A stretch of DNA of 64,000 nucleotides from Patescibacteria group bacterium (GCA_035549295.1 DASZRG010000036.1:13324-77323), one strand, 5' to 3'; positions 15,349 through 31,914 are shown, counted from the stretch's first letter. The notes: generated by a model from the sequence alone, not told the origin. Made by a program: numbers and translations.

Positions 15349-15612
15349 TTAAAATTTGTTTGTGTTAATAAGCAAAAAGAATGCCATAACAATCAAACTT
15401 ATAAGTATATATTCTATCACAATCTTTTTTTTGAGTGTGTGGTGCATTTTGTGATGCAATATACCCCACACCGCATAGAAACATAAAAGCACCAATAATG
15501 CTGCAACTTGTCGATGGAAATCACCTGATAGAATAAATATTCCATAAAAACCACCTGTTAGAATAAGCAACTCTAACACGTAATAAATTTGATGAGGAAT
15601 TTTTTGTATCAT
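15349..15612 (-). CDS. Small 2-3 TM membrane protein
   Basis: 87 aa and hydrophobic (GGFYGIFILSGDF..., HHKMHH). It sits between the CAP-domain gene and rmlA. Confidence 0.35.
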   Translation of the reverse strand: MIQKIPHQIYYVLELLILTGGFYGIFILSGDFHRQVAALLVLLCFYAVWGILHHKMHHTLKKKIVIEYILISLIVMAFFLLINTNKF

Positions 15613-16508
15613 ACAATAACCCCGCTTGTTTTAAGAACCATAAACAACATAAAAAGCGCGATTAAAATTATGTGGTCAATATTGTGTCCAACTATTCTTG
15701 GAATTTTCTTTCGCTCTATTATTAGCAAATCCATAATTAACGCAAAACAAATAAGGCTTAGCACTACGGTTGTCGTGGCTTTAGAAGCAGATTTAGAATC
15801 GATAAGAGGACGAGACTCAATCACTTTTCCATTTGGAACGCTTGATCCATTAACTTGTGGGGCTGATGCAATATGCACTTGTGGCGCAACTGAGACGTTT
15901 GGAGCTGAGGCAGCCTGGTCTGGAAGTTTTTGGACTGTTGTATCAACAGTTGAACCAAACATTTGAACTACCAAAACTGTATCCTCTCCCTGCAATGTAC
16001 CAGGCACAATCGCAAACCCAATATCTCGATACCTATCAGATAATATATTGTCACGATGAGTCGGTGAATTCATCCAAGCAGTAACGATAGAATTTGCATC
16101 AGTAAAACCCTTTGCCAAATTTTCTCCTGCAAAAACATAATCATAACCCGAATCTTTTATAAACTGCCAAGGAGTTGTCTTGCCATCTGGCGCAAAATGA
16201 GCCCAATAGTCTTTAGCGAACATATCAGCAGCTTTTTTGCTTGCGGCCGCATCAAGTTCTGAATTTATTTTAAGTGGAGGCAAACCGTTGTCTTGTCTTT
16301 GTTGATTTACCAGATTTAAAAGATCATTTTCTGAAATTGAATAAGAAATACCCAAAACTTGAGGATGGGATGATGTAATAGAATGAGTAAACCAAACGGT
16401 TACCGAAAGTGCCAAAAAAATTATCAGAAGACTTGAGTTGTGGAGTATTTTTGATCTGTGATTATTTTTGTGATGAGGAAACAATAAATGCTTTAGAAAA
16501 CGTATCAT
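15609..16508 (-). CDS. CAP/SCP/PR-1 domain protein, membrane anchored
   Basis: YWAHFAPDG...GENLAKG...WMNSPTHRDNIL resembles a YkwD-like CAP domain. It has an N-terminal TM segment and a C-terminal hydrophobic tail. Confidence 0.6.
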   Translation of the reverse strand: MIRFLKHLLFPHHKNNHRSKILHNSSLLIIFLALSVTVWFTHSITSSHPQVLGISYSISENDLLNLVNQQRQDNGLPPLKINSELDAAASKKAADMFAKDYWAHFAPDGKTTPWQFIKDSGYDYVFAGENLAKGFTDANSIVTAWMNSPTHRDNILSDRYRDIGFAIVPGTLQGEDTVLVVQMFGSTVDTTVQKLPDQAASAPNVSVAPQVHIASAPQVNGSSVPNGKVIESRPLIDSKSASKATTTVVLSLICFALIMDLLIIERKKIPRIVGHNIDHIILIALFMLFMVLKTSGVIV

Positions 16509-16554: not shown

Positions 16555-16599
16555 GTAGTAAAGTATCAAAGGTATCAAAAGTATCAGAGGTATCACGAG
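16555..16599. repeat. Tandem 9-bp repeat array, (A/G)GTATCA(A/G)AG x4
   Basis: AGTATCAAAGGTATCAAAAGTATCAGAGGTATCACGAG lies in the promoter region of the CAP-domain gene. A near-identical array is at 31021-31058. Confidence 0.8.
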
Positions 16600-25042: not shown

Positions 25043-26034
25043 TTCAATTCGGCGTCGATAAAAATGTCTATTTCACCATCGAGAACGGCTTCGGTATTGC
25101 TTGTTTCGGCACGCGTCCTGAGATCTTTTACCATTTGGTATGGATGCAAGACGTATGAACGAATCTGATTGCCCCAAGATGCGGGTTTGTAAACTCCCTT
25201 TAATTCTTTCTCTTGTTCGGCTGCTTTTTGCTGCTCAAGAGCCCAAAGCTTCGCTTTCAAGAGTTTCAATGCATACTCGCGATTTTGTCCCTGAAAGCGT
25301 TCAGTTTGACATGTTACGACAATACCAGTCGGTTTGTGTTTAAGCCTAACCGCAGATGAGACTTTCTGGACATTTTGCCCTCCATGAGATGAGGCGCGAT
25401 AAAAATCCCACTCCAAATCGTCTTCTTTTATTTCAGTATCCGTAGTTTCAATATCGGGAAGCACCTCAACTAAGGCAAAGGAGGTATGTCTCAAATTATC
25501 AGAATTAAAAGGCGATAATCTAACTAGGCGATGAGTACCTTGTTCACCCTTCATATATCCATAGACAAATTGGCCATCGACTGAAATTGTTGAACTTTTT
25601 ATACCAGCCTCTTCACCCTGTGTTTCATCGACTATTTCATACGACCAACCTTTTCTATCAAAAAATCGTAGATACATTCGCTTCAACATAGCGGCCCAGT
25701 CCATAGCATCGGCTCCTCCTTGACCAGCGTGAATTGTGACAAGCGCATTGTTTTTGTCATATGGTCCTGCCAAATAAAGATACATTTCCATATCACGCAA
25801 AAGCGTTTCGAGCCCAGTCGTGCTGTTTGAGTCGATATACTCCTGAAGCTTGGCTGCATCATCCACTTCTTTTTGTAGAAGTGCCATGAGTTTCATTTTG
25901 CGAGTAGCAGCTTGTGTATCTTTCCAAAAGTCAGGTCTCATGGACTCTGCTTCGATCTCTCGGATCTGAGTTTTTTTTGCTTCGATGTCGAGTTTGCCTA
26001 TCAAAATTTTGGCGCGCTCGATAAGATCGTTCAT
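25030..26034 (-). CDS. prfB: Peptide chain release factor 2
   Basis: The GGQ motif (SSHGGQNVQK) and the RF2-specific SPF motif (RLSPFNSDN) are present. The 334-aa frame is uninterrupted, so no programmed frameshift is used here. Confidence 0.9.
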   Translation of the reverse strand: MNDLIERAKILIGKLDIEAKKTQIREIEAESMRPDFWKDTQAATRKMKLMALLQKEVDDAAKLQEYIDSNSTTGLETLLRDMEMYLYLAGPYDKNNALVTIHAGQGGADAMDWAAMLKRMYLRFFDRKGWSYEIVDETQGEEAGIKSSTISVDGQFVYGYMKGEQGTHRLVRLSPFNSDNLRHTSFALVEVLPDIETTDTEIKEDDLEWDFYRASSHGGQNVQKVSSAVRLKHKPTGIVVTCQTERFQGQNREYALKLLKAKLWALEQQKAAEQEKELKGVYKPASWGNQIRSYVLHPYQMVKDLRTRAETSNTEAVLDGEIDIFIDAELKASN

Positions 26035-26368
26035 TTCAAATTGATTTTAACAGAAAAGATGGAATACGCATACTTTTGTTCAGTCAAAATTAACAAAACC
26101 AGGTTCTTTTCTGCCGAAAAAAGAACCAAAAGCTCTCACTCCAGTTTTGCTTCATGCTTTCGAGTTTCACTCACTCGTCGGGTGATTTCACCCCCTCCTC
26201 GATCCAAGTCGTTGCTTGGCCGAGGAATCCCCCTGACTTCGTTCGTTCAACTCTCAAGAATTCAGCAAAAGGGAGTGATCGTGTCGCTAAAAGAAAATTT
26301 TTCTCATACTACTTGCAATGTTTTCACACTTCTGGAATACTATTATTTATATATAGCGTTTTGCGCTT

Positions 26369-29300
26369 ATGAGTTTTATTAATCGATTTAAAGAAACGAA
26401 ATTTCTAGACCTTGAACACAAAATAGGTATTGCTGTTTTTGTACTCCTTACACTTGTCGCAATCCCCGTAACAGTTGTCAGCGTCAAAAAGACTCAAGAT
26501 GACCGCTCACATGCAGCTGAGCCCCAGAATAATTTGCAACTTGGATATTTCGACCCTTCATATTTTGGGGTCATGTCCTCAGTCGCTCACGTGGACAACG
26601 AAGTACTTGTCCGATACAACAATTCAGTAAATATCAAGACAAGAACTGGAGTTAACCCTTCAACGGACACGTTTCAGGTTGCCGACATAACTGGCGGGTT
26701 GCCAAACAATACTTTGAACAATCTAAAATCACTTTCAGTCGCATCAATTGAAAGCGCTTACAAAGAACCAACGGCTCAAAATACTCAGTGGGGGAAAACA
26801 TATATATCAAATACTTACCGTGTGAAGCTTAATCAAGGACAAGACCTGGTTGCAGCGATGAATAAGCTTTGCAGTGATGGGAAAGTCACAATGTACTGTG
26901 AGCCAAATTATAAATTTACTCCAGCAACAAATCCAAATGGAGGTCAAACTTCACCAACAAGTGGAAAAGTTCTTGCCGCAACAACTACCAATCAGTCACG
27001 ACCATCAGCGCTTATCGCAATCGTTGATACTCCACTGCCAGTCAACTACAACGATATTGCGAACGCTTTTGGCTTCTCCATATCAAACAGTCAAATACAA
27101 CCAGCAATTGAAGGCACGCGAGATGACAATTACAAATATCACGCAATCTTTGCAGCAGCAGCCGGATATGCTACCAACCCTGGAGTTAAATATATTTTTG
27201 AAGGCGCTTGCGGAACGACATGCTCCAATTCAAGTCTTGCACAAGGCATAATAGATGCAGTCAATAAAAATGCAAAAGTTATATATATAGGTGAAGCCAA
27301 CACTTTTCCAAAAGGCGTTGTCCCAATGAGTATCGCATCAGCCGTCGGATATGCCGTCGCAAACGGCGCAAAAGTTGTAGCCCCTATAGTCAACCCAAGC
27401 TCCCCAACAAGCATGAATTCTTTACCTAATACAACAAGTTTTATTGACAAAGTTCTAACATTCGCACACAAAATAACCGGCTTCCCACCTATCGCAGCCG
27501 CACAGGGACTTCTTCAACCAGTGCCTTCGAGTGTACAAAATTCAATTAATACATATGCACCAAAATCGTCATCTCAATTACAGAATGCTCTTAGCCAATA
27601 TGCAACCGGAAATACTGGTGCCGGAATAGCACAAAACAATCCAAATACAATTCTTATTAGTCCCCAAGATACTGGCATAATAACCCAACTCGTAAAAGCA
27701 GTAAATCCAAATGCATCGGCCCAGGATGTTCAGAATTTAATAAAAAACAGTCAAACGGCTGATGCAAATGGCAGAATTGATGCTTCCACAATTCTTCAAG
27801 AAGCCAGTCAACTCTCGAGTGCAAGTAACGGAACTAATACATCAAATAAGCAGACGTCCCCAGCCCCATCATCAGCTCCTACTCAAAATGCAAATGGGGC
27901 AAAGCCTAGCACCACAACCCCCCCTTGTACATCTCAACCAAGCTGCTCACCCGGCGTAAACGCTGTAACTGGAAATACTACTCAGGCGGCGACTGGAGCA
28001 ATAACAATGCCTCAAGCAATACAGTCAATCCAAACAAATTCTACTGGAGCCCTCCAACAGTTGGGCATCAACTCGTCACAGCTCCAGTCTGGAATCAATG
28101 GGAATTCTATAGCAACAGGAAATGGTGCAGCGGCTTACGGAATACTACTGTCTGCAAATCCCAAGCTAACCAACGCGCAAGCAAATGATATTATTGCAGC
28201 AAATACCAAAGTTCAGAACTGTGGTGGCGGTGGAAGCCAACCAGCTTGCGGTATTCAACTTGGTCAAGCTGTTCAGGATGCATTAGGTACAGCTTACAAT
28301 CCTCCTACCCTTCCCCCAACTGCACCTGCTGCCTCTACTTCCAATCCACCGAGCACTGACCCAATCATAACAGTACCGACAGCAGCTGCACAAACAGCTT
28401 ACCAAACCGCAGTAAACAACGGAGACAACTTAATTTGCCAAGCATGCGGTAAAAATGGCGAGGATTTAACTTTCAACCAAATGACCGGACAACCATATTA
28501 CACGGATGATGCACGAACTTGGTATCTAGCACAAATAGGCCTAACACCAACAGGAGCGAATGCAACATCTGCAACCGCAAACCCTGTCGTACAACCTATA
28601 GCAGCTGTTTCTGTTCCGCTGGGAAGCGCAGTAACTGGAAATCCTCCAGCTGCAGATTCTAATACACAACCACCAAAATCACAATCCTCTACCGCTCAGA
28701 GCGTAAGTGATCTTAATCAACTTGCAAGTGACATAGCTGCAGGTAAGTATGATAATTTAAGTGCAGTTCAGAAGGAAACAATGTTTGTAAATGCATTTAA
28801 TGCAAATAATATTGACGTAAAGGACTTAACACCAGCTCAAGCACAACAACTTCAAGCCGATCTCAACACATATCATGATCAAATCACATCAGCGCAAGAT
28901 GCACAGGCTTCATGTGTTGTAAATTGTAGTACGTACGACAGTAATGCTACTGACCAAGCATATCAAAATTGGAATTCTCTTTCTAACCAACTTACACAAA
29001 CTGGACTTACAGATCCATGTGCAGGGTTACCTGCAAATATGCCTTGTGGAGATGGTGGTAGTAGCAGTAATCTTACTCAAAATAGCTCAGGCGTAAGTAC
29101 ATGCGGAAGCGTTGAAGCAAAGCTAAGTGGAACATGCGATCAAGCAGCAAATGGAACAGTAAGTACTGCACCAACAGGGGACCAATTAAGATCTGGCTGC
29201 GTCAGAGTGGGAAGCGGAATCAGCAATGATTGTGTTGATACGTGGGTTGGAAATCAAGTAAATGGGCTAATAAATGGCATAGGCACACTTACGACTGATA

Positions 29301-29965
29301 ATTCTTCTCAGAAAACTTATGCTTCTAAATTTGATACATTATCAACACCTAACCCAGATACCGTAGCCCCTCTCCCCCAAAGTTCAACATCTGACAATAT
29401 ACTCTACTCTTACTTATCACCATATGATTCGAGTACTTCCAATTCGGACACCACAAATATTAGCCAAGAACAAAATGAACTATTAGCCCAAGGACAATTG
29501 AACTACTCTGACATATCAACTCCCGGCCAAACAGATCTTACAAACGGAGCGAATGGGGCATGCTCTGATGGCTGCATTTCCAATTCAGACGGTACAATTT
29601 ATGATCCAACAACAGATCAACTTTTGGGTCTAGATCAGACAGGAGTTTATGTACCTGTTGCTGGACCACCAACGCCTGAGGATATTCCTTATTCTGACCA
29701 GACAACTGCCGTCTCAAATGATGCATCTGGTATCTTCTCTGGAATAACAAATATTGCAGACCAGGCAACTCAAATGGCGCAAGGAGCAACTGATCAAACA
29801 GCAGATGCTGCTCAAAATCTTATAGATGCAGGTTTTCCTCCTGATGGATCGCCGAACTATGCTGATAATGGTCAGCCGATATATGACGTAGCGATGCCGG
29901 ATCCTGGTACGTTTATACCAACAGATCAAGGAGGATGTGACCCGACATATGGGTGCGCGTACTAA
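26369..29965 (+). CDS. Large secreted/surface protein (1198 aa): N-terminal signal anchor, a subtilase-propeptide-like (I9-like) segment with a possibly degenerate S8-like region, then ~800 aa of Gln/Asn/Thr/Ser/Gly-rich low-complexity sequence with Cys pairs
   Basis: The N-terminal TM segment is followed by VLVRYNNS...VTMYCEPNYKF, which resembles a subtilase propeptide ending in V.Y.EPNY. IAIVDT resembles the catalytic-Asp motif. No clear GTSxxAP serine motif was found. The long C-terminal region is polar and low in complexity. Confidence 0.55.
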   Translation: MSFINRFKETKFLDLEHKIGIAVFVLLTLVAIPVTVVSVKKTQDDRSHAAEPQNNLQLGYFDPSYFGVMSSVAHVDNEVLVRYNNSVNIKTRTGVNPSTDTFQVADITGGLPNNTLNNLKSLSVASIESAYKEPTAQNTQWGKTYISNTYRVKLNQGQDLVAAMNKLCSDGKVTMYCEPNYKFTPATNPNGGQTSPTSGKVLAATTTNQSRPSALIAIVDTPLPVNYNDIANAFGFSISNSQIQPAIEGTRDDNYKYHAIFAAAAGYATNPGVKYIFEGACGTTCSNSSLAQGIIDAVNKNAKVIYIGEANTFPKGVVPMSIASAVGYAVANGAKVVAPIVNPSSPTSMNSLPNTTSFIDKVLTFAHKITGFPPIAAAQGLLQPVPSSVQNSINTYAPKSSSQLQNALSQYATGNTGAGIAQNNPNTILISPQDTGIITQLVKAVNPNASAQDVQNLIKNSQTADANGRIDASTILQEASQLSSASNGTNTSNKQTSPAPSSAPTQNANGAKPSTTTPPCTSQPSCSPGVNAVTGNTTQAATGAITMPQAIQSIQTNSTGALQQLGINSSQLQSGINGNSIATGNGAAAYGILLSANPKLTNAQANDIIAANTKVQNCGGGGSQPACGIQLGQAVQDALGTAYNPPTLPPTAPAASTSNPPSTDPIITVPTAAAQTAYQTAVNNGDNLICQACGKNGEDLTFNQMTGQPYYTDDARTWYLAQIGLTPTGANATSATANPVVQPIAAVSVPLGSAVTGNPPAADSNTQPPKSQSSTAQSVSDLNQLASDIAAGKYDNLSAVQKETMFVNAFNANNIDVKDLTPAQAQQLQADLNTYHDQITSAQDAQASCVVNCSTYDSNATDQAYQNWNSLSNQLTQTGLTDPCAGLPANMPCGDGGSSSNLTQNSSGVSTCGSVEAKLSGTCDQAANGTVSTAPTGDQLRSGCVRVGSGISNDCVDTWVGNQVNGLINGIGTLTTDNSSQKTYASKFDTLSTPNPDTVAPLPQSSTSDNILYSYLSPYDSSTSNSDTTNISQEQNELLAQGQLNYSDISTPGQTDLTNGANGACSDGCISNSDGTIYDPTTDQLLGLDQTGVYVPVAGPPTPEDIPYSDQTTAVSNDASGIFSGITNIADQATQMAQGATDQTADAAQNLIDAGFPPDGSPNYADNGQPIYDVAMPDPGTFIPTDQGGCDPTYGCAY

Positions 29966-30999
29966 ATGCTATGAATTCGAAGAATTATATAAAAGGAACA
30001 TTTTGGCAAAGACTTGCAGCATTTATTATTGATGCATTAATTCTTTTTGTTCCCATCTTCATATGGCTAATCTCAAGTCTTTACTTAAAGGTCAGAACTC
30101 AATTGATAATTGGTATCGTAAACTACGTTATTATTGCCTCTTACAATGTTTTTTTTCTTACACGGACTAGCTCCACAATTGGTAAAAAAATACTTAGACT
30201 TAAAGTAGTTAACTCAAATTACGAAAAAGCAAATATCAAAACTATTTTACTCCGAGAGGTAGTCGGAAAATTTATCTCACAAGCGATATTTAGCCTTGGA
30301 TACATTTGGGCGCTTGGCAATCCTAAGCGACAAACATGGCATGACAAAATTGCCAAGACTTACGTTGTCAGACTAGACAAGGAACACAACCTTACAGAAG
30401 GCGAAGATAAACAACCAACGAAGGTAGAAAAAATCCTATTCTATGCCTATACTTTATTCGTCATTATCTCAGTCATAATCGGACTTTTCTTTGGGATCGT
30501 AGGCCGCCCCGTCAGAAATATTTCAAGCTCTATGGAGCCAAACTATAAGCAGGGAGCTTATTACCTCACTACTCCACCGAGGAACATTAAACGCGCTGAT
30601 GTCGTAGTCTATACAGTCTTCATAAAAGGTCGACCAGTACAATTCATAAAGCGCGTCATAGGTCTACCGGGTGAAAAAATAGCGCTATATGAAGGGCGAG
30701 TATATATAAATGGAAAAGTTCTCTATCAGCTTAAATATCTATCAAAATCAGTGACTACTTCTGGCGGCGCGTTTTTGAAAGACAAATCTCAAATTATTAT
30801 TCCAAAAGGAACATATTTTGTGATGGGAGATAATAGATCCGCAAGTCTTGACTCTCGAGATATGGGATATCTACCCGGAAAAAACATCACTGGGAAAATA
30901 TGGTTCTGTTACTGGAATTGTCAGGGAAGTAAGGGGCCGAAGATAATTGGGAAGAGAACGGTTCCGACTCCGAAAGTAACTCCGGCGAAAGGGAAATAA
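29953..30999 (+). CDS. lepB: RDD-domain / signal peptidase I (LepB, S26) fusion
   Basis: The N-terminal RDD-like membrane domain reads WQRLAAFIIDALI. The SPase I boxes are SSSMEPN (catalytic Ser), KRVIGLPGE (catalytic Lys) and GDNRSASLDSR. It overlaps the upstream large-protein gene by 13 nt. Confidence 0.8.
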   Translation: MRVLNAMNSKNYIKGTFWQRLAAFIIDALILFVPIFIWLISSLYLKVRTQLIIGIVNYVIIASYNVFFLTRTSSTIGKKILRLKVVNSNYEKANIKTILLREVVGKFISQAIFSLGYIWALGNPKRQTWHDKIAKTYVVRLDKEHNLTEGEDKQPTKVEKILFYAYTLFVIISVIIGLFFGIVGRPVRNISSSMEPNYKQGAYYLTTPPRNIKRADVVVYTVFIKGRPVQFIKRVIGLPGEKIALYEGRVYINGKVLYQLKYLSKSVTTSGGAFLKDKSQIIIPKGTYFVMGDNRSASLDSRDMGYLPGKNITGKIWFCYWNCQGSKGPKIIGKRTVPTPKVTPAKGK

Positions 31000-31020
31000 C
31001 TGAAATATCCCCGAGAGAAA

Positions 31021-31058
31021 AGTATCAAAGGTATCAAAAGTATCAAGAGTATCAAAGG
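31021..31058. repeat. Tandem 9-bp repeat array (second locus), AGTATCAAAGGTATCAAAAGTATCAAGAGTATCAAAGG
   Basis: Seen directly. It lies ~60 nt upstream of the ion-channel gene and matches the array at 16555-16599. Confidence 0.8.
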
Positions 31059-31116: not shown

Positions 31117-31914
31117 ATGAAAGTGCAGTCTAAGAGGCGAAGCCGCGACTTTGTTGATAAAATATCTTACTTCCTTATAATTATTGCTCTTCCACTCGTT
31201 CTAGTTGATTATCTATTTCATCCTGCACCCGAACTTCGGGCTCTTTTTGATGAATATTTTATCTTTATATATTGTCTTTTCGTTGTTGAGCTTCTTATTA
31301 GGTTCTTAAGAACACGCAACAAAAAAGATTACATAAAAAACAATTGGGTAGAGTTTGTTATCGTCATATTTCCATTCTTCAGACTTCTGGGACTCGTCCC
31401 TATACTTGAGGAGGCATTTATCATAGGTATTGATCGTGTTACCAAAAAACTCGCTCACCCACATCACATAGCAGTTATAAACACTGTTATATTTATGTTT
31501 ATTGCAGTACTGGTTGCAAGCGAGGCAATATTATTTTTTGAGAAGCCATATGGCGGAAGCACAATACGAACTTTTTCTGATGGTCTTTGGTGGTCAACTG
31601 TTGGAGTTTCAAATATTGGATTTGCAGGCAATTTAATTCCTGAATCGATTGGCGGTAAGATTCTCAATCTCTTATTAGTCTTTATTGGTATGTTTTCGCT
31701 TAGCATGATAACGGCAAATATTGCGGCATTTTTTACAGAAGAAGATGTAAAGGCTGATATCGATCGAGAACTAGTTGAGATAGAACTTGATCTTTCAAAA
31801 GTTAAACGTGAAATGAAAACTGAAATTGACCATGATGACACTGAAATAAAAGATGAGCTCAAAAAGATTGAAGACAGGATAGACGAGCTGAAAGATAGCA
31901 AGAACAATGGATAA
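31117..31914 (+). CDS. 6-TM ion channel of the voltage-gated/Ion_trans type with a non-canonical pore sequence
   Basis: Multiple TM helices. The pore-helix-like DGLWWSTVGVSNIGFAGN carries TVGVSN instead of TVGYGD. The C-terminal tail is an acidic coiled coil. Confidence 0.5.
   Translation: MKVQSKRRSRDFVDKISYFLIIIALPLVLVDYLFHPAPELRALFDEYFIFIYCLFVVELLIRFLRTRNKKDYIKNNWVEFVIVIFPFFRLLGLVPILEEAFIIGIDRVTKKLAHPHHIAVINTVIFMFIAVLVASEAILFFEKPYGGSTIRTFSDGLWWSTVGVSNIGFAGNLIPESIGGKILNLLLVFIGMFSLSMITANIAAFFTEEDVKADIDRELVEIELDLSKVKREMKTEIDHDDTEIKDELKKIEDRIDELKDSKNNG

Follow-up and report, generated by a model that had tools for sequence, protein, structure and literature searches.

The cassette and its two genes

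A 64,000-nucleotide stretch of a Patescibacteria group bacterium genome (GCA_035549295.1, DASZRG010000036.1:13324-77323; hereafter the window, numbered from its first letter) contains two adjacent plus-strand genes that are described here as a cassette. Gene 1 codes for a large, putatively membrane-anchored or secreted protein, and gene 2 codes for an RDD membrane domain fused to a type I signal peptidase (SPase I; family S26). An initial annotation of the window had read them as a major surface or matrix protein and the dedicated peptidase that processes it. We found that the pair is kept in related genomes and that most members of the RDD-S26 fusion family lack one or both catalytic residues, a pattern that points to a role other than cleavage. 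The two genes are:

26369..29965, plus strand: gene 1, an open reading frame (ORF) of 1198 amino acids (aa), NCBI HVZ12361.1, "hypothetical protein VG965_05000"; a conserved N-terminal module of ~345 aa followed by an orphan tail of ~850 aa
29971..30999, plus strand: gene 2, RDD-signal peptidase I fusion of 342 aa from ATG 29971, NCBI HVZ12362.1, "signal peptidase I"

Both products are assigned to a Patescibacteria metagenome-assembled genome (contig CAZMXU010000060.1, GCA_964570355.1).

Both ORFs are present as first annotated, the longest one for gene 2 being 29953-30999 on the plus strand (348 aa from a GTG start at 29953). The 13-nt overlap that had been reported between them exists only with this GTG start and is probably not real. 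All homologues of gene 2 begin M-N/D-x-x-[YF]-K-K and align to ATG 29971, and the NCBI product, at 342 aa, matches the same start; the genes are therefore separated by a 5-nt gap (TAA at 29963-65, ATGCT, ATG). There is no terminator-like and no good promoter-like site between the two genes. Because no Shine-Dalgarno sequence lies at a useful distance from the start of gene 2, translation of the pair is likely coupled by termination-reinitiation.

The RDD-signal peptidase fusion

Residues of gene 2 are counted from ATG 29971 unless the 348-aa ORF is named. Its features, all on the plus strand, are:

29998..30357, plus: RDD domain, with R14, D21 and D125, predicted strong transmembrane (TM) helices at residues 16-34 and 45-63 and a weak segment at 97-115
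30421..30501, plus: predicted TM anchor helix of the SPase, residues 151-177 in the AlphaFold2 (AF2) model; Kyte-Doolittle segment 159-177, score 2.59
30454..30915, plus: SPase I (S26A) catalytic domain, from Pfam S26, TIGR02227 and alignment columns
30529-30531, plus: nucleophile Ser187 in the SSS-M-EP box (S187-M-E-P), aligned with stand-alone LepBs
30649-30651, plus: general base Lys227 in FI-K-RVIGLPGE (K227-R-V-I-G-L-P-G), aligned with stand-alone LepBs
30826-30858, plus: box E, G286-R296, GDNRSASLDSR
30907-30921, plus: clade-specific C313-x-W-N-C317, from alignment columns

Pfam places RDD (PF06271) at residues 16-135 of the 348-aa ORF (E=1.2e-22, 81.2 bits, cutoff 24.1) and Peptidase_S26 (PF10502) at residues 168-321 (E=2.9e-33, 115.6 bits, cutoff 22.9). 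The bacterial SPase I model TIGR02227 scores 116.6 bits against a cutoff of 47, whereas the archaeal/endoplasmic reticulum (ER)-type model TIGR02228 scores 29.6 bits, under its cutoff of 51.85. The initial annotation had described an N-terminal RDD domain joined to a type I signal peptidase with the boxes SSSMEPN, KRVIGLPGE and GDNRSASLDSR, and all of these are present. Judged by its profile matches and motifs, gene 2 is a bona fide RDD plus bacterial-type SPase I (S26A) with an intact Ser187/Lys227 dyad.

An AF2 model built on an alignment of 33 fusion sequences has a mean predicted local distance difference test score (pLDDT) of 92.6. Its top Foldseek matches in the PDB are Staphylococcus aureus SpsB, Streptococcus pyogenes SipA and Escherichia coli LepB, and it superposes on SipA with a TMt of 0.84 and a root-mean-square deviation of 2.2 Å. 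The model predicts that the SPase fold is retained. Hydropathy analysis gave strong TM segments at residues 16-34, 45-63 and 159-177 and the weak segment at 97-115, with K/R-rich loops at 67-88 and 116-150. Residues 97-115 are probably re-entrant, in which case the predicted topology has the N terminus inside and the SPase domain outside; the SPase domain would be outside only if this segment is re-entrant. The same ambiguity of topology was described for SppI, which is also an RDD protein (PMC7568657). The re-entrant topology fits a report in which the conserved intramembrane site of RDD faces the cytoplasm (PMC12419801).

The gene pair in related genomes

Proteins 37%-42% identical to the ~345-aa N-terminal module of gene 1 are encoded at three loci (L001, twice; L008; L011), and the module also matches a protein at a fourth (L018, E=1.9e-91). 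A word-index search with full-length gene 1 returned only itself and a three-sequence profile returned only P0122, probably because the low-complexity tail swamps the candidate list of such searches; members of the gene 1 family were recovered through synteny and pattern scans. All of those recovered have an RDD-S26 gene directly downstream, so that the pairing with large secreted proteins, as the initial annotation had it for the window, is kept in relatives (seven pairs in six genomes). In every case the two genes of a pair either lie 1-7 nt apart or share 4 nt. Outside the window, the arrangements are:

L001 (GCA_964616095.1): prfB (minus strand), 634 aa, RDD-S26, 857 aa (PT-HINT), RDD-S26, Nramp; a tandem duplication of the pair
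L008 (CAZYWG010000002.1): prfB (minus strand), 794 aa, RDD-S26
L012/L013: only a G/Y/S-rich tail is visible, ending 2 nt before RDD-S26; EamA lies downstream, as in L008
L011/L010: 703 aa, then RDD-S26; the upstream context is different
L018 (GCA_964556445.1): 681 aa, with a 4-nt overlap with its RDD-S26

Three gene contexts were found for the pair, with prfB upstream in some genomes and dCTP-deaminase/thymidylate-kinase genes in others. Its tandem duplication as a unit and its relocation support a conserved functional pair rather than inherited synteny alone. Among three genomes prfB is 79%-80% identical, compared with about 40% for the big N-terminal domain and 42%-53% for the RDD-SPase; both cassette genes thus appear fast-evolving relative to prfB, which fits surface-exposed proteins. 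The L008 contig, with the same cassette and a prfB 79% identical, was deposited as "uncultured Gammaproteobacteria bacterium," a label that is probably a taxonomic misassignment or a binning error.

Loss of the catalytic dyad across RDD-S26 fusions

A HMMER search with a fusion profile was run exhaustively against 1.84 billion representative sequences, each standing for a cluster at 50% identity. At least 30 full-length RDD-S26 fusions occur among the representatives, a sample of which was verified with Pfam. The fusion is unusual, as had been remarked, but with at least 30 cluster representatives it is not unique.

The Ser and Lys positions were compared in 37 aligned fusions. Both residues are kept in eight; Ser alone is gone in 12, Lys alone in eight, and both in nine, leaving 29 of 37 fusions without Ser and/or Lys. 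Replacements are diverse (A/M/G/N at the Ser position and Q/G/R/S/N/E at the Lys position), and a rough neighbor-joining tree has intact copies interspersed with defective ones. These two patterns together indicate that the dyad was lost repeatedly and independently. Other parts of the protein did not vary in this way. The RDD residues R14, D21 and D125 are invariant in the 33 aligned fusions used for that check (33/33) and in 36 of the larger set of 37, where the exception, P0144, is truncated at its N terminus. Box E (GDNRxxSxDSR) is nearly invariant across fusions, and the C-terminal CxWNC pair occurs in most of the clade and is lacking in stand-alone LepBs. The loss of the dyad in most fusions, while the RDD residues and box E are conserved, suggests that the family is selected for something other than peptide-bond cleavage.

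The same holds for the copies that are paired with a gene 1 homologue. Residues at the two catalytic positions are:

Window copy: S at the Ser position, K at the Lys position
L001 copy 2: S and K
L001 copy 1: A and Q
L008 paired copy: M and Q
L012 paired copy: M and Q
L011 paired copy: S and Q
L018 paired copy: N and G

Five of the seven paired SPases therefore lack Ser and/or Lys, and by their residues only the window's copy and one of the L001 copies could cleave. This does not agree with the proposal in the initial annotation that a dedicated SPase processes the gene 1 product, at least as a property of the family. A dedicated partner is supported and a dedicated processing protease is possible at this locus, but processing is not the common function of the family. 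In genomes with dead copies, the predicted loss of activity means that the fusion cannot be the housekeeping SPase. Most RDD-S26 genes are labeled "signal peptidase I" in databases, yet by the same residues they cannot be active peptidases.

One protein from the search of representatives, P0259 (597 aa), has an SPase-like domain without Ser and Lys (G/S) that is fused to DUF805, also a small membrane domain, instead of RDD. Its architecture suggests that the fusion of small polytopic membrane modules to SPase I recurs.

Architecture of gene 1

The predicted features of gene 1, all on the plus strand, are:

26402..26479, plus: signal-anchor, with a conserved juxtamembrane motif on the cytoplasmic side, F-L-D-L-E-H-K-I-G (residues 12-20), and a TM helix at 19-37 ending AIPVT
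26480..26518, plus: post-TM segment, SVKKTQDDRSHAAEP, where VVS38/V and SHA49/A (cleavage at the slash) are candidate SPase I sites, chosen by inspection under the -3/-1 rule only
26531..26917, plus: subtilase-prodomain-like segment (I9/fervidolysin N-pro-like), residues ~55-183, ending C168...Y-C177-E-P-N-Y-K-F
27008..27403, plus: degenerate S8 subtilase-like core, residues ~214-345, with IAIVD220T, candidate His257, C281/C285 and oxyanion-like N342
27404..29962, plus: orphan low-complexity tail, residues 346-1198, defined by composition and Cys spacing

The N-terminal signal anchor of the initial annotation corresponds to the single TM-like segment found by Kyte-Doolittle hydropathy, at residues 19-37. 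The motif [LF][LF][DA][LIV]EHK[IV] was restricted to the gene 1 family among all ORFs scanned, and H17 and K18 are invariant in six of six sequences. A signal-anchor with this degree of sequence conservation would be atypical of ordinary signal peptides. The string "AIPVT...QDDRSHA" of gene 1 is similar to "AIPVT...QQDVRQRA," a signal found in other secreted proteins adjacent to the cassette in L011 and L018. These neighbors are large (L011, 7233-8981; L018, 5557-7554 and 7649-8743), and their N termini have in common a strikingly conserved signal, F-x-F-S-[ST]-Y-K-R-x-A ... [AS]-I-P-[VI]-T ... Q-Q-D-[VI]-R-Q-R-A, which suggests that the lineage has its own class of signal or sorting sequence.

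Both the propeptide-like end YCEPNYKF and the Asp motif IAIVDT, which the initial annotation had named, are present in gene 1. Gene 1 matched no Pfam or NCBIfam family at threshold, including Peptidase_S8 and Inhibitor_I9, and gave no match to Peptidase_S8 even at E<=10. The prodomain-like segment scores under the cutoff against Pfam Fervidolysin_NPro-like (PF22148; E=0.025, 15.4 bits, cutoff 21). A bona fide S8 protease at L009, which lies within a 4675-aa Victivallales protein, has a prodomain that likewise ends in YCEPNYK (hmmsearch E=2.2e-6). Profiles of the N-terminal domain family searched against the PDB gave only S8 matches, at E values of about 1e-5 (thermitase, 1.3e-5; AK.1 protease, 1e-5; NisP, 2.2e-5; then mycosin and subtilisin BPN'), and these cover the region from the Asp box to the oxyanion Asn. 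In alignment with the L009 protease, D220 corresponds to the catalytic Asp, H257 to the catalytic His, and N342 to the oxyanion Asn. The similarity to S8 subtilases with I9-type prodomains is thus remote but specific, and S8/I9 ancestry of the N-terminal module is supported by these profile and motif comparisons. An AF2 model of residues 1-505, built on a two-sequence alignment, has a mean pLDDT of 37 and is not usable for a fold search; a beta-alpha-beta-beta-alpha-beta pattern in the prodomain-like segment is found only in this low-confidence model.

Gene 1 differs from S8 subtilases in its sub-threshold profile scores, the lack of a Ser box, an unconserved triad, and the hypervariable tail that follows the core. 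No GTSMAxP-type Ser box is recognizable in gene 1, and the region after N342 is unalignable across the family. A look-alike string, "PTSMNSLP," is found six residues past N342, in a column that lacks conservation. Catalytic positions vary within the family (Asp to Gly and Asn to Arg in L018, His to Asn in L001_634), and the invariant residues of the module are structural, namely two Cys pairs, YCEPNY, and FP. Since the Ser box is not recognizable and none of Asp, His and Asn is kept by every family member, the core is probably a subtilase-derived pseudoprotease module.

The tail agrees with the earlier description of a Q/N/T/S/G-rich region with paired Cys. It is rich in A/T/S/Q/N/G/P, with only 2.5% K+R. 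All 22 Cys of gene 1 fall into 11 consecutive pairs with spacings of 3-11 residues, and nine of these pairs are in the tail. It has no internal repeats, no Pfam match, and no PDB sequence match (residues 346-700 and 701-1198 searched). Only one stretch, of 38 aa, has similarity to the tail of a relative (L001_857, E=0.005). G+C across the gene 1 region (26001-30000) is 0.42-0.44, compared with 0.35-0.41 across most of the window, and AT skew is strongly positive (+0.13 to +0.17); this bias fits Q/N/T/A-rich coding rather than showing a foreign origin.

The 857-aa paralogue in L001 (11025-13598) carries a PT-HINT/bacterial-intein-like domain (E=1.2e-10; Cys625 ... VHN) placed between the pseudo-subtilase module and the low-complexity C terminus. 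Its Hint domain is probably cleaving rather than splicing, because the residue after HN is Val. Domains of this kind are characteristic of polymorphic toxins and of variable surface proteins and, with a conserved N-terminal module and hypervariable tails, would suit big proteins that are polymorphic-toxin-like or antigenically variable effectors, with gene 2 in a protective or export-accessory role. We consider this very improbable. The tails are low-complexity with no toxin domain detected, the window's protein has neither a toxin domain nor the pre-toxin PT-HINT domain of polymorphic toxin systems, and the downstream gene is conserved and does not vary with the tail as immunity genes would.

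Flanking DNA

Two copies of a 9-bp tandem array lie in the window:

31018-31056, plus strand: array of GTATCAAAG, about four tandem units, ~60 nt upstream of a gene for an ion channel (31117-31914, plus strand)
16563-16595, plus strand: second array of GTATCAAAG, about four tandem units, ~55 nt upstream of a gene for a CAP-family secreted protein (15609-16508, minus strand)

The first is the array that the initial annotation had placed directly downstream of the cassette. The chance expectation for such matches is 0.04, and the arrays may be regulator-binding. We rejected the array as a part of the cassette, as it is absent from related loci and its second copy is upstream of the unrelated CAP-family gene.

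Upstream, the intergenic region between prfB (minus strand) and gene 1 (plus strand) spans 26035-26368, or 334 nt, compared with about 100 nt in relatives. It contains a long rod-like hairpin at ~26135-26290, with a minimum free energy of -79.8 kcal/mol on the minus strand (z=-3.84, 0/200 shuffles) and z=-3.64 on the plus strand. Read on the minus strand, it precedes a terminator-like hairpin (26127-26102) with a T-run, close upstream of the start of prfB. Rfam searches of the window and of the intergenic region upstream of gene 1 returned no family; the folding prediction suggests that the rod-like hairpin may be a small structured RNA or leader.

Comparison with known systems

The initial annotation had compared the locus to tapA-sipW-tasA of Bacillus subtilis (PMC10151520, PMC4292775). 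The likeness is that a non-housekeeping SPase is encoded beside the extracellular structural proteins that it serves, and it is a loose one. SipW is an ER/archaeal-type SPase, whereas gene 2 is of the bacterial P-type (TIGR02227 versus TIGR02228). The clients are unrelated to TasA/TapA (Pfam and NCBIfam scans of gene 1 showed no similarity to these families), gene order differs, and most orthologues of gene 2 cannot cleave.

SipA is a closer analogue. In S. pyogenes it has an SPase fold without the catalytic Ser and Lys, is encoded alongside pilin genes, and is indispensable to the assembly and polymerization of pili (PMC4049620). SipA (LepA-like; PDB 4n31 and 4k8w) and the fusions share an SPase I fold encoded beside surface-protein genes, and the fusion model superposes on it. 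SipA has other residues in place of the catalytic Ser and Lys and keeps the peptide-binding cleft, and a role in binding or assembly has been proposed; most paired orthologues of gene 2 are likewise Ser/Lys-deficient. The window's fusion keeps Ser187/Lys227 and so is not of the SipA type by that criterion, in contrast to the five of seven paired orthologues without Ser and/or Lys. Further differences are the fused RDD domain, a client that is a pseudo-subtilase protein and not a pilin, and the occurrence in Patescibacteria and not Firmicutes. Genes near the cassette include prfB, the ion channel, NUDIX, FtsEX, the CAP protein and others, and the neighboring genes scanned contained no sortase or pilin domain.

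A parallel for the RDD half is SppI (YteJ) of B. subtilis; this RDD protein forms a complex with SppA, a Ser/Lys protease encoded in its operon, and regulates it (PMC7568657). Both systems couple an RDD membrane protein to a co-encoded, membrane-anchored Ser/Lys-dyad protease of the signal-peptide pathway. SppA and SppI are distinct polypeptides, the protease belongs to family S49, and the RDD protein inhibits it, whereas here RDD and S26 are covalently fused and the protease is often dead. The cassette combines known kinds of component, a SipA-like pseudo-SPase and the coupling of RDD with a Ser/Lys protease; no description of the RDD-S26 fusion family was found in the literature searched.

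Proposed function and alternatives

We favor, with about even confidence, a cassette that is a lineage-specific, fast-evolving cell-surface system in which the fusion is the dedicated partner of the gene 1 signal-anchor. The gene 1 product would be inserted through its single N-terminal signal-anchor, with the prodomain-like segment, the decayed subtilisin-like module, and the hypervariable low-complexity extension with its short disulfide loops all outside the cell. The gene 2 product would have a cytoplasm-facing RDD domain, a TM helix, and an extracellular SPase I domain. The short-range Cys pairs of gene 1 and the CxWNC pair of gene 2 are putative hallmarks of extracellular location. The RDD-SPase would recognize the unusually conserved signal-anchor as its dedicated partner, its SPase cleft binding the extracellular post-TM segment and, in a more speculative step, its RDD pocket binding the cytoplasmic HKIG motif. 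Across the family it would serve to bind, hold or assemble the partner, in the way proposed for SipA. In the window, where Ser187/Lys227 are intact, the partner would probably also be cleaved near SHA49/A or VVS38/V, freeing the surface protein from its anchor. We infer the physical interaction, the topology, the cleavage, and a surface or adhesive function.

Several observations weigh against a dedicated partnership. The predicted RDD topology rests on taking residues 97-115 as re-entrant. No canonical AXA cleavage site is common to the gene 1 family, candidates being found only in individual proteins. A mirror-tree comparison of the big N-terminal domain and the RDD-SPase gave r=0.06 over 10 pairs, a value that is uninformative either way, as every pair is nearly equidistant. 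The six genomes are rather closely related (prfB 79%-80% identical), and adjacency could in part be inherited synteny.

Relatedness of the genomes is also what would be expected if the window's fusion were a housekeeping SPase I with an RDD module, its position reflecting inherited gene order. Two further observations against a dedicated partner favor this explanation: the catalytic boxes are intact with an equivalog-level bacterial SPase I score, and there is no other S26 gene in the 64-kb window or in the 10 kb past its start. A second lepB was sought by phmmer over six-frame ORFs of the window and in the 10 kb beyond its start, and none was found; among the eight close stand-alone LepBs there is no HVZ-series accession, and P0030 belongs to another assembly. 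A housekeeping role nevertheless appears unlikely to us, given that same-position orthologues are dead in five of seven pairs, that L001 has a duplication of the whole pair, which stands in another context in L011 and L018, and that rampant independent loss of Ser/Lys implies that catalysis is generally dispensable.

The remaining evidence on the negative side comes from distant RDD-S26 fusions (P0004, P0125 and P0128), which have no big-protein neighbor:

P0004: downstream of a rhomboid gene
P0125: stands alone
P0128: between NUDIX and HicAB
P0129: downstream of a 193-aa gene, judged on gene length, its upstream DNA being unread

The surroundings of such fusions (rhomboid, NUDIX/HicAB, or nothing notable) would suit a function unrelated to gene 1, for example regulation or scaffolding of Sec/SPase through RDD, with gene 1 an independent hypervariable surface protein. 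RDD is fused to many unrelated modules, among them VanZ, zinc ribbon and PD40 (PMC12419801), and what SppI regulates is a general protease and not a single client (PMC7568657). We find such independence improbable within the clade, where seven of seven pairs are separated by a few nucleotides at most or overlap by 4 nt, the coupling has outlasted duplication and relocation, and the signal-anchor of gene 1 is unusually conserved. At the P0004 loci (L003-L005), a Ser-less fusion lies 20 nt downstream of a rhomboid-family intramembrane protease gene on at least three independent metagenome contigs, an arrangement that looks like another protease/pseudoprotease pairing.

Implications

A wider proposal, which we put forward tentatively and regard as rather doubtful, is that the fusions are two-sided membrane receptors in which the RDD pocket and the SPase cleft clamp the signal-anchor of a client, proteolysis being optional and repeatedly lost. 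In this clade, where the client would be the hypervariable pseudo-subtilase surface protein, this would amount to a "double pseudoprotease" system for surface display or assembly. If so, the function of RDD would be to recognize the cytoplasmic n-region or TM segment of clients of Ser/Lys membrane proteases, which would unify the fusions with SppI-SppA. RDD is widespread and without an accepted function, and its fusion to SPase I, together with SppI-SppA, points to a link with the Ser/Lys proteases of the signal-peptide pathway. The fusions, in which fold and RDD residues are kept while the dyad is repeatedly lost, provide a natural experiment for a binding role and would extend the SipA pseudo-SPase concept past Gram-positive pili. 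Patescibacteria are mostly uncultured and many are episymbionts; a fast-evolving surface protein with a dedicated partner is a plausible determinant of host interaction.

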